Virus record (IMG/VR): IMGVR_UViG_2531839619_000023
Length of the DNA: 40,950 nucleotides
DNA from: a virus
Lineage: Duplodnaviria > Heunggongvirae > Uroviricota > Caudoviricetes
Strand: one strand, 5' to 3'
Shown here one piece after another: positions 37,700-40,571 of the stretch. Each line of letters begins with the position of its first letter. Position 1 is the first letter of the stretch. A program made the translations under genes and the position numbers. The notes under the pieces are model-generated. The model did not search any database. It was not told the origin of the DNA and saw only the letters and a program-made list of their open reading frames with translations.

Positions 37700-37775
37700 C
37701 CGATTTAGTATCAAATAAGTTGCGTATCGGCGTTTTTCAGCGGTATCAAATGAAATGCAAATCGGTATCAAAAAA
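37700..37775. other. Prophage right-end region with putative transposase-binding repeats (candidate attR)
   Basis: Repeats of GTATCAAA(T/A) at about 37708, 37743 and 37764; GCGTTTTTC (reverse complement GAAAAACGC) as in Mu R1; candidate terminal CA at 37758-37759. Confidence 0.35.
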
Positions 37776-40571
37776 ATCGCCGCGCTATACGTTCCGCGCC
37801 TGGCAATGTATGCTCATAAAGAAGATTGCGGCAGTCTGCTGGTACAAATTAACCATCCGCAAGTCATCCGCACCTTGCTGTTAGTTGCTGATAAAAACAA
37901 ACCCAGCCTGCAACGTGTGGCTAAATACAGTAAAAACTTCCCCCATGCGACGCTCGCCGCACTGGCAGAACTGCTGGCGTTAAAAGAACCACCAGCCCGC
38001 CCTGGTTATCCAATCATCGAAGACAAAAAGCTGCCTGCACAGCAAAAAGCTCGAGAAGAATACTGGCGTACGCTGTTACAAACGCTGATGGCATCGCAGC
38101 CACAACTGGCAGCAGAAGTGATGTCGTGGTTAAGTACTCAAGCCAGGGCAGTGCTGAAGAGTTATTTATCGGCACTGCCAAAACCGGTTATTGATGGCAC
38201 CGATAACAGCAATCTGCCTGAAATCCTCGTTTCACCACCGTGGCGTAGTAAGAAAAAAATGACAGCTCCACGTCTTGATTTGGCACGGCTCGAATTAACT
38301 CCGCAAGTTTACTGGCAACCAGGCGAACGAGAGAGGCTTGCCGCCACTGAGTCTGCCCGTTATTTCAGCACGGAATCTCTTGCGCAACGCATGGAACAAA
38401 AAAGTGGGCGAGTTGTATTACAGGAACTGGGTTTTGGGGATGATGTATGGCTGTTTTTGAATTATATACTCCCTGGAAAACTGGATGCTGCACGCAATTC
38501 ACTCATTGTTCAGTGGCATTACTACCAGGGGCGGGTTGAAGAGATCCTGAATGGCTGGAACTCCCCGGAAGCACAATTAGCAGAACAGGCGCTCCGCAGC
38601 GGTCACATAGAAGCGTTAATTAACATATGGGAAAATGACAACTACTCACGTTATCGTCCGGAAAAGAGTGTCTGGAACCTGTATTTATTGGCACAGTTGC
38701 CGCGTGAGATGGCTTTGACTTTCTGGCTGCGTATCAATGAGAAAAAGCATCTGTTCGCGGGAGAGGACTATTTTCTCAGTATCCTCGGATTGGATGCGCT
38801 ACCAGGTCTGCTGTTGGCTTTTTCACATCGTCCAAAAGAAACATTTCCGTTAATTTTAAATTTCGGCGCAACAGAACTGGCCCTGCCCGTTGCCCGCGTC
38901 TGGCGACGTTTCGCGGCGCAGCGTGATCTGGCTCGCCAGTGGATTTTACAATGGCCGGAACATACGGCTACTGCACTTATCCCTCTTGTCTTCACCAAAT
39001 CTAGCGATAAAAGCGAAGCTGCATTACTTGCCCTGCGTTTACTTTACGAACATGGGCATGGCGAATTGCTACAAACTGTAGCCAATCGTTGGCAGCGTAC
39101 AGATGTATGGCCTGCCCTGGAGCATTTACTGAAACAGGGTCCCATGGAAATTTACCCGGCACGCATTCCAAAAGCCCCTGATTTCTGGCATCCGCAAATG
39201 TGGTCCAGGCCGCGCCTTATCACTAATAATCAACCTGTTACCGATGACGCTCTGGAAATTATCGGCGAAATGCTGCGCTTTACCCAGGGGGGACGTTTTT
39301 ATAGCGGGCTGGAACAACTGAAAACGTTCTGCCAGCCACAAACGCTGGCAGCTTTTGCCTGGGATCTCTTCACTGCGTGGCAACAAGCTGGTGCCCCCGC
39401 AAAAGACAACTGGGCATTTCTGGCGTTAAGTCTCTTTGGTGACGAAAGCACGGCACGGGATCTAACAACACAGATCCTCGCCTGGCCACAAGGCAAATCT
39501 GCCCGTGCTGTCAGCGGCCTGAACATCCTTACCCTGATGAATAATGATATGGCGCTGATACAGCTGCATCATATATCGCAACGGGCTAAATCCCGCCCCT
39601 TACGTGATAACGCGGCGGAATTTCTTCAGGTAGTCGCAGAAAATCGCGGGCTAAGCCAGGAAGAGCTAGCGGACAGATTAGTCCCAACCCTGGGCCTTGA
39701 TGATCCGCAGGCGTTGAGTTTTGATTTTGGTCCCCGGCAGTTTACCGTTCGCTTCGATGAAAACCTCAACCCGGTTATCTTTGATCAGCAAAACGTTCGC
39801 CAGAAAAGCGTTCCCCGGTTGCGCGCCGATGACGATCAACTGAAAGCGCCCGAGGCACTGGCCCGACTAAAAGGGCTAAAAAAAGATGCTACTCAGGTGA
39901 GCAAAAACCTGCTCCCGCGTCTTGAAGCTGCCCTACGTACCACCCGACGCTGGTCGCTGGCAGATTTTCATTCTCTGTTTGTTAATCATCCCTTTACCCG
40001 TCTGGTTACCCAGCGATTAATATGGGGGGTTTATCCGGCAAATGAACCGCGTCGTTTACTCAACGCCTTTCGTGTGGCCGCAGAGGGGGGGTTCTGCAAT
40101 GCGCAAGATGAGCCAATTGACCTGCCTGCGGACGCTCTGATTGGCATTGCCCACCCGTTAGAAATGACAGCAGAAATGCGCAGTGAATTTGCACAGCTTT
40201 TTGCCGATTACGAAATTATGCCGCCTTTTCGCCAGTTGGCGCGCCGCACGGTGCTGCTCACACCTGATGAGTCAACCAGTAACAGCCTGACTCGCTGGGA
40301 AGGTAAATCCGCTACCGTTGGGCAACTTATGGGAATGCGATACAAAGGCTGGGAGTCAGGTTATGAGGACGCATTTGTCTATGACCTGGGTGAGTACCGG
40401 CTGGTCCTTAAGTTTTCACCCGGTTTTAACCACTACAATGTTGATAGCAAAGCGTTAATGAGCTTCCGTTCTCTTCGAGTGTACCGTGACAATAAATCCG
40501 TCACTTTTGCCGAACTTGATGTGTTTAATTTGAGTGAGGCGTTAAGCGCACCTGACGTCATTTTCCATTAA
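37755..40571 (+). CDS. Large host protein of unknown function; probably the 3' portion of a host gene interrupted by the prophage
   Basis: 938-aa ORF with host-like composition beginning inside the prophage end; the frame is open upstream to 37719, so the called ATG is probably not the real start. Family not assigned. Confidence 0.55.
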   Translation: MQIGIKKIAALYVPRLAMYAHKEDCGSLLVQINHPQVIRTLLLVADKNKPSLQRVAKYSKNFPHATLAALAELLALKEPPARPGYPIIEDKKLPAQQKAREEYWRTLLQTLMASQPQLAAEVMSWLSTQARAVLKSYLSALPKPVIDGTDNSNLPEILVSPPWRSKKKMTAPRLDLARLELTPQVYWQPGERERLAATESARYFSTESLAQRMEQKSGRVVLQELGFGDDVWLFLNYILPGKLDAARNSLIVQWHYYQGRVEEILNGWNSPEAQLAEQALRSGHIEALINIWENDNYSRYRPEKSVWNLYLLAQLPREMALTFWLRINEKKHLFAGEDYFLSILGLDALPGLLLAFSHRPKETFPLILNFGATELALPVARVWRRFAAQRDLARQWILQWPEHTATALIPLVFTKSSDKSEAALLALRLLYEHGHGELLQTVANRWQRTDVWPALEHLLKQGPMEIYPARIPKAPDFWHPQMWSRPRLITNNQPVTDDALEIIGEMLRFTQGGRFYSGLEQLKTFCQPQTLAAFAWDLFTAWQQAGAPAKDNWAFLALSLFGDESTARDLTTQILAWPQGKSARAVSGLNILTLMNNDMALIQLHHISQRAKSRPLRDNAAEFLQVVAENRGLSQEELADRLVPTLGLDDPQALSFDFGPRQFTVRFDENLNPVIFDQQNVRQKSVPRLRADDDQLKAPEALARLKGLKKDATQVSKNLLPRLEAALRTTRRWSLADFHSLFVNHPFTRLVTQRLIWGVYPANEPRRLLNAFRVAAEGGFCNAQDEPIDLPADALIGIAHPLEMTAEMRSEFAQLFADYEIMPPFRQLARRTVLLTPDESTSNSLTRWEGKSATVGQLMGMRYKGWESGYEDAFVYDLGEYRLVLKFSPGFNHYNVDSKALMSFRSLRVYRDNKSVTFAELDVFNLSEALSAPDVIFH

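Follow-up and report, generated by a model that had tools for sequence, protein, structure and literature searches.

An Sp18-type transposable prophage in yehI of O157:H7-like Escherichia coli, with a 4-bp target-site duplication and a TA right terminus

The stretch of DNA analysed here (the window) comprises the 40,950 nucleotides of IMG/VR virus record IMGVR_UViG_2531839619_000023 (Caudoviricetes) and contains, in left-to-right orientation, nearly the whole of a prophage together with its right-hand junction with the bacterial chromosome. The prophage is an Sp18-type transposable (Mu-like) phage of O157:H7-like Escherichia coli, a type that is already known, and the data as a whole are almost certainly best explained by transposition of this phage into the host gene yehI, with duplication of the four target bases CGTT and with the right junction inside the window. 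The full prophage measures 38,924 bp, the leftmost 1,135 bp of which fall outside the window. A phage/host junction in yehI is in itself an ordinary event, and the insertion is also found in public draft assemblies; the 4-bp duplication and the TA dinucleotide at the phage terminus are robust and apparently undocumented. Sp18 itself has been reported to be intact, packaged, and located at strain-specific sites (PMC2669165, PMC7430833, PMC10132054).

The right junction was set by a megablast search of window positions 36900-38600 against 5,426 complete E. coli genomes, which returned two sorts of partial match and no full-length match; the yehI insertion is absent from all the complete genomes searched and present in draft assemblies. 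The phage-side matches stop at window positions 37790-37802, at 37789/37790 in hundreds of genomes, and the genes beyond mom differ from one genome to another, including betT, ypdA, melA, appC, hyfE, phage portal genes, and others. In 5,264 genomes, the host-side matches begin at 37790 and fall within an uninterrupted gene that is annotated as yehI. Specifically, yehI of the O157:H7 strain PV15-279 is 3,633 nt long and matches from nt 849, with 0 mismatches and one 3-nt gap (at 39490) between 37790 and the end of the window. The right ends of the phage copies at different sites are common up to …CGCTATA and diverge straight after, and the C at 37790 is a host base because intact yehI reads …GCAGCCGTTCCGCG… around the insertion point; together, these two observations make 37789 the last phage base, with the phage end reading …ATCGCCGCGCTATA and host DNA starting at 37790 (yehI nt 849). 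Eleven Logan contigs contain this right junction as well. The earlier note, made from the sequence of the window alone, ended the phage region at 37790, within one base of the true junction between 37789 and 37790, and held that the exact point could not be fixed without the left end; the phage copies elsewhere and intact yehI suffice to fix it, and the alignment with the uninterrupted host locus that it proposed shows 100% identity from 37790 onward to yehI of prophage-free O157:H7, from nt 849. Two matches (H1 and H9) that extend 12 nt into the host flank of the query were considered as possible carried-over yehI DNA, and this was rejected, their flanks resembling yehI by chance.

The left junction of the yehI insertion lies outside the window and was recovered from a public assembly. 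The left phage end, taken from other copies of the same phage, begins TGTAACCAGGTGAATCATTTGATACC. Fusion proteins spanning the left junction were predicted for duplications of 2, 3, 4, 5, and 6 bp and looked up exactly among ~15 billion public proteins, where the 4-bp version alone exists (309 residues, 57 contigs, e.g., EEC7859192.1, named 'regulator'), consisting of YehI residues 1-284 and 25 phage-encoded residues, CNQVNHLIPTRVLVKGGEITCKMLK. At the nucleotide level, contig AAUDRH010000008.1 (GCA_013589365.1, locus L047) reads …GGACTGGCAGCCGTT joined to TGTAACCAGG…, or in short form …GCAGCCGTT joined to TGTAACC…, and continues with a repressor gene, a ner-like gene, and the transposase, identical to positions 1-1943 of the window; this overlap, with 0 mismatches, places the phage left end 1,135 bp upstream of window position 1. 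The junction in L047 and the fusion protein that occurs solely in its 4-bp form establish CGTT as the target duplication. The two junction features in the window are as follows.

37788..37789, + strand: right terminal dinucleotide TA, from phage copies at other sites and the yehI match from 37790
37790..37793, + strand: right copy of the 4-bp target-site duplication, CGTT, from native yehI, the L047 left junction, and the fusion protein

The same geometry holds across the lineage. Thirteen independent insertions were compiled with both junctions, namely the yehI insertion, eight in complete genomes, two IMG/VR pairs, Sp18 of the Sakai strain, and a diverged copy in the mouse strain M18. Exactly four bases are duplicated in all 13, and a fifth is ruled out in 12 of them by the next base on either side. 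The phage is carried by ~230 genomes, and its presence at many unrelated chromosomal sites, 13 of them independent and each with an exact direct repeat, is the behaviour of a transposable phage; these variable sites, the identity of yehI, and a left junction with 5' yehI bear out the reading of the earlier note that a transposable phage is inserted in a host gene, whereas the 5-bp target duplication that it anticipated is replaced by one of 4 bp (CGTT here). The right end reads …TATA-3' in every copy and the left end starts with 5'-TG, M18 excepted (5'-TA), so that neither the TG…CA termini nor the 5-bp target-site duplication of the Muvirus type is found. The diverged copy of E. coli M18 (NZ_CP010219.1) has TA at both termini (5'-TATAACC…GCGCTATA-3') with a 4-bp duplication, TACC, from which it follows that on the transferred strand the base beside the terminal base can be either C or T. 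According to a 2021 survey, every Mu or B3-like phage described by that time had TG-CA ends, with duplications of 5 bp in Mu and 6 bp in B3 and with Leptospira TA-TA prophages as the exception (PMC8705779); the 5-bp figure for Mu used here is this literature value and was not re-derived with the present method. No description of the end structure of Sp18-type phages, or of a 4-bp duplication in Mu-like phages, was found in the searchable literature. An apparent rule that the first duplicated base is always a pyrimidine (10/10) was withdrawn as a sampling artefact because four of the loci had been drawn from the highest-ranking BLAST matches, a ranking that favours query-like flanks; the first base of the IMG/VR right flanks is A in nine cases, C in two, T in three, and G in one.

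Both phage ends carry a repeated motif, TTTGATAC(C/T), in three inward-pointing copies. On the + strand of the window, GTATCAAA occurs at 37708, 37743, and 37765, so that three of the five copies in the window fall inside 65 bp, the five copies comparing with 1.04 expected and with 0 of 100 shuffles reaching that number. The earlier note had reported repeated motifs after mom, and the three copies are indeed at that place and enriched. The right attachment end thus delimited spans 37708-37789 and finishes …GCGCTATA-3'.

37708..37715, + strand: end repeat R3, GTATCAAA (TTTGATACT read inward), with its TTGATAC core from position 76 inward of the right terminus
37743..37750, + strand: end repeat R2, TTTGATACCG read inward, core from position 41 inward
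37765..37772, + strand: end repeat R1, TTTGATACCG read inward, core from position 19 inward, in register with L1

At the left end, the TTGATAC cores start at positions 19, 114, and 166. When the two ends are aligned with each other, as the earlier note had suggested, an inverted terminal repeat is seen: the first 30 nt match at 20 of 30 positions, and the first core begins at position 19 in both, with the repeats in register, which places the right terminus at 37789 independently of the junction comparisons. The TTTGATAC(C/T) repeats are presumably the binding sites of the transposase, mirroring R1-R3 of Mu.

A different element, GAAAAACGC, had been taken as a core like that of Mu R1. It is present, and the same 9-mer is found in Mu R1, 14-22 nt from the Mu right end; as a recognition element, it does not hold. 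The window has a single copy (37730-37738, - strand), which is at chance level (0.63 expected, at least one in 44 of 100 shuffles), and GAAAAACGC is not found at the left phage end, so that it does not qualify as a MuA-type binding consensus here. It is the complement of GCGTTTTTC, that is, of the 3' arm and T-run of a hairpin that starts 31 nt past the mom stop codon and holds repeat R3 in its loop.

37692..37738, + strand: hairpin with a 13-bp stem, GAAAAGCGCCGAT / ATCGGCGTTTTTC, ending in a T-run, from RNA folding; its arms are 37692-37704 and 37726-37738

The hairpin folds with -23.6 kcal/mol (z -3.3 against shuffles) and is likely the terminator of mom transcription. A simple terminator scan did not list it because its loop is long.

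The insertion accounts for a 938-residue open reading frame (ORF) at the right end of the window. As the earlier note had remarked, this host-like frame begins inside the phage end and is open upstream of its ATG (37755); the open part covers 12 codons only, up to the TAA at 37716-37718, and is all phage DNA. Full-length yehI has 1209-1210 codons and its own start, and what the window holds is its 3' part, with the 5' 852 nt at the other junction (L047).

37755..40571, + strand: chimeric 938-residue ORF, in order 11 phage-end codons (MQIGIKKIAAL), one codon across the junction (Y), and YehI from residue 284 to the C-terminus, from the ORF listing and the PV15-279 comparison
37790..40571, + strand: 3' part of host yehI (DUF4132), nt 849 to stop, from the comparison with PV15-279, Pfam (DUF4132, E 4e-47), and RefSeq
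40633..40950, + strand: host gene yehK, 105 residues, from the ORF listing, RefSeq, and the PV15-279 comparison

The gene is split into residues 1-284 followed by 25 phage-encoded residues at the left junction and residue 284 onward at the right junction, where an in-frame ATG in the phage end makes 3' yehI look like a gene of 938 residues; this ATG is taken as fortuitous because the phage end is the same at every insertion site. On its sequence, the 938-residue ORF is a truncated host gene rather than an intact one; it is regarded as an annotation artefact of gene disruption, and the truncated yehI would have no meaningful expression. With respect to PV15-279, yehI of the window lacks 3 nt at 39490 (positions 4701-4703 of the PV15-279 locus); RefSeq has both 3,633-nt and 3,630-nt versions of the gene. 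In the O157:H7 strain C1-057 (NZ_CP035366.1), the same phage lies in the DUF4132 paralogue immediately upstream of yehI; this paralogue is a frameshifted pseudogene even in prophage-free O157:H7.

The placement of the phage end and the length of the duplication could be read otherwise. One alternative is an insertion of the canonical Mu type, in which the termini would be TG…CA, the duplication 5 bp long, and the junction one base off; this is the textbook expectation for Mu, agrees with the lengths and TG-CA ends given for Mu and B3 (PMC8705779), and is in line with the record of Mu itself, which shows TG…CA. However, in 12 of the 13 insertions the left copy is preceded on its 5' side by a base other than the last phage base, and the right copy is followed on its 3' side by a base other than the first phage base, so that a 5-bp duplication cannot be drawn on either side; moreover, the 5-bp fusion protein is absent from the ~15 billion proteins in which the 4-bp one is present, and no CA lies within 25 nt of the right end, all of which leaves a canonical insertion very improbable. 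Models that would save a 5-bp stagger, such as cleavage one base inside the end or copying of the terminal base from the non-transferred strand, were rejected because they predict either that the constant terminal A is lost or that a fifth base matches, and neither is seen. The identity of GAAAAACGC with part of Mu R1 could instead suggest that the phage ends further in, at ~37738, and that 37739-37789 are host or junk DNA, but these bases are kept one for one in every phage copy at unrelated sites, GAAAAACGC is single, at chance level, and missing from the left end, and the transposase is just 22.6% identical to MuA; the junction table of the insertions refutes this inner end, which can hardly be credited at all.

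It has also to be asked whether signals in the phage end could drive expression of the 938-residue ORF, making it a working gene for a YehI that lacks its N-terminal part. Its in-frame ATG at 37755 opens an uninterrupted frame of 938 codons that retains the DUF4132 domain at residues 682-866, and gene callers do call it. Against this, a search of 37500-37900 revealed no sigma-70-like promoter, a strong hairpin followed by a run of T stands between mom and the ATG, the bases upstream of the ATG (…GGTATCAAATGAA) contain no Shine-Dalgarno-like purine run, and the ATG belongs to a phage end whose sequence is identical wherever else the phage is inserted; a working gene is thus improbable. Two points weigh against the insertion of an Sp18-type phage into yehI with a CGTT duplication, as reconstructed here. 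The left junction and the window come from separate records that overlap in the first 1,943 bases of the window, and they are linked through sequence identity and the same yehI breakpoint; furthermore, the prophage copies are near-identical at the right end, so that neither the hairpin nor the repeats gain support from covariation. Under the preferred reading of a 4-bp insertion into yehI, the A transposase would join the 3' ends of the phage to a target cut with a 4-bp stagger at nt 849-852 of yehI (CGTT), and repair would then duplicate these four bases. More generally, Sp18-type phages probably use an end chemistry and a transposition-complex geometry unlike those of Mu, with a 4-bp stagger and a 3' dinucleotide that may be TA (without exception on the right, and in one variant on the left too).

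The gene content of the window fits a phage of this kind, with a DDE transposase A and an ATPase B at the left end, as in transposable phages, and mom as the last phage gene, in agreement with the earlier note.

1..267, + strand: Ner-like early regulator, 88 residues, from the ORF listing and the RefSeq annotation of a helix-turn-helix protein
278..2368, + strand: transposase A, 696 residues, a DDE enzyme and distant relative of MuA, from Pfam and BLASTP
36770..36970, + strand: com, zinc-ribbon activator of mom translation, Pfam Zn_ribbon_Com E 3e-12
36924..37661, + strand: mom, the last phage gene, Pfam Mom (PF25680) E 4e-77, RefSeq 'protein mom'

The transposase matches the Pfam families Mu-transpos_C (E 1.5e-17) and HTH_Tnp_Mu_1 (E 4e-5), with weak rve matches for the catalytic core. 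Since a sequence search of the PDB returned weak matches to retroviral integrase cores and MuA was not among them, a direct BLASTP comparison was required to reveal the distant relationship to MuA, which extends over the full length (22.6% identity, 738 aligned columns, E 1e-13). Closer relatives are the transposase of phage SuMu, with 43% identity, and those of D3112-like Pseudomonas phages, with ~30%, each over at least 90% of the protein length. RefSeq gives the transposase two starts in near-identical prophages, resulting in 2,091 nt (696 residues) in 2013C_3653 and 2,043 nt (680 residues) in others. In identical prophages, the gene that follows (2440-3372) carries the annotation of an AAA family ATPase. 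At the opposite end, the start of mom is overlapped by the upstream com, and a gene identical to com is named Com family regulator in RefSeq. Scans of the window for tRNAs and Rfam families were empty.

Between the invertase/tail-fibre region and com, positions 33503-36655 encode a 679-residue DUF6645 protein and small DUF1378 and DUF826 genes, and an ORF of 154 residues with two CxxC pairs lies on the reverse strand at 36191-36655, in the block before com. We know of no counterpart of this block in Mu, and the look of its genes suggests cargo. In the C1-057 copy of the phage, ISEc8 adjoins the DUF6645 gene, which is annotated as lacking its N-terminus.

Sp18-type phages often disrupt resident prophages. 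Four of the 13 insertions examined sit within genes of other prophages (HK97 gp10, terminase, head completion, and portal), and one GenBank record of an Stx2c phage, LC727881.1, likewise carries a Mu-like insert. Disruption of resident prophages is also remarked on in PMC10132054.

As for annotation, the 938-residue 'gene' and the 309-residue 'regulator' are the two halves of yehI and are to be marked as a disrupted gene, and the boundaries of the prophage can be set to the base. Shiga-toxin-producing E. coli widely carry Sp18-type phages, which have so far been treated as 'Mu-like'; pipelines that search for a 5-bp repeat and for TG…CA at the termini will set the boundaries of this common phage wrongly, and the Sakai reference record itself deviates by 1 and 5 bases. 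Although modest as a side result, the 4-bp duplication and TA terminus have some wider use: a natural relative of MuA that makes a 4-bp stagger and tolerates TA at its terminus offers a convenient comparison for how DDE transposition complexes space their target cuts.

Among known elements, the closest is Sp18 of O157:H7 Sakai, whose right end is identical to that of the present phage, whose left end is near-identical over the first ~40 nt, and which likewise has a 4-bp duplication, TAAA in sorM. The last gene of Sp18 in Sakai is annotated as 'DNA modification protein' (mom), and the same gene order is found in other Sp18-like prophages; the match in gene content rests on this last gene and on that gene order, without a direct comparison. 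The insertion sites differ, being yehI here, sorM in Sakai, and the prpD-prpE intergenic region in FRIK804. In the Sakai record (NC_002695.2), Sp18 is annotated at 5040971..5079729 (38,759 bp), and the ends defined by sequence are 5040970..5079724 (38,755 bp), the annotation omitting the first T and taking in 5 host bases.

The likeness to Mu is one of layout and machinery. In both, com and mom are the rightmost genes, and each end has three repeats, one of them near the terminus; the remaining two lie ~95-150 nt deeper at the left and are closely packed at the right (cores at 19/114/166 on the left and 19/41/76 on the right here, with the CGAAA cores of Mu at 22/127/167 and 13/22/44). The two phages also share a GC-rich block immediately internal to the terminus, an A as the last 3' base, near-random insertion, and a DDE transposase that acts together with a B-type ATPase. 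Conversely, the repeat motif here is TTTGATAC(C/T) and not the Mu consensus, TTGATAC being absent from the Mu ends, and the right terminus is TA with a 4-bp duplication and a transposase 22.6% identical to MuA, whereas Mu has CA and 5 bp. The nearest named transposases, those of Haemophilus phage SuMu and of the D3112-like Pseudomonas phages, belong to phages of other hosts, and the SuMu paper gives neither end sequences nor the length of the duplication. Lastly, the 'TA-TA' prophages of Leptospira (WETA1 group; PMC8705779) have TA termini, as does the M18 variant at both of its ends, but they differ in having a B3/Tn552-type transposase and a 6-bp duplication and are unrelated in sequence and host.

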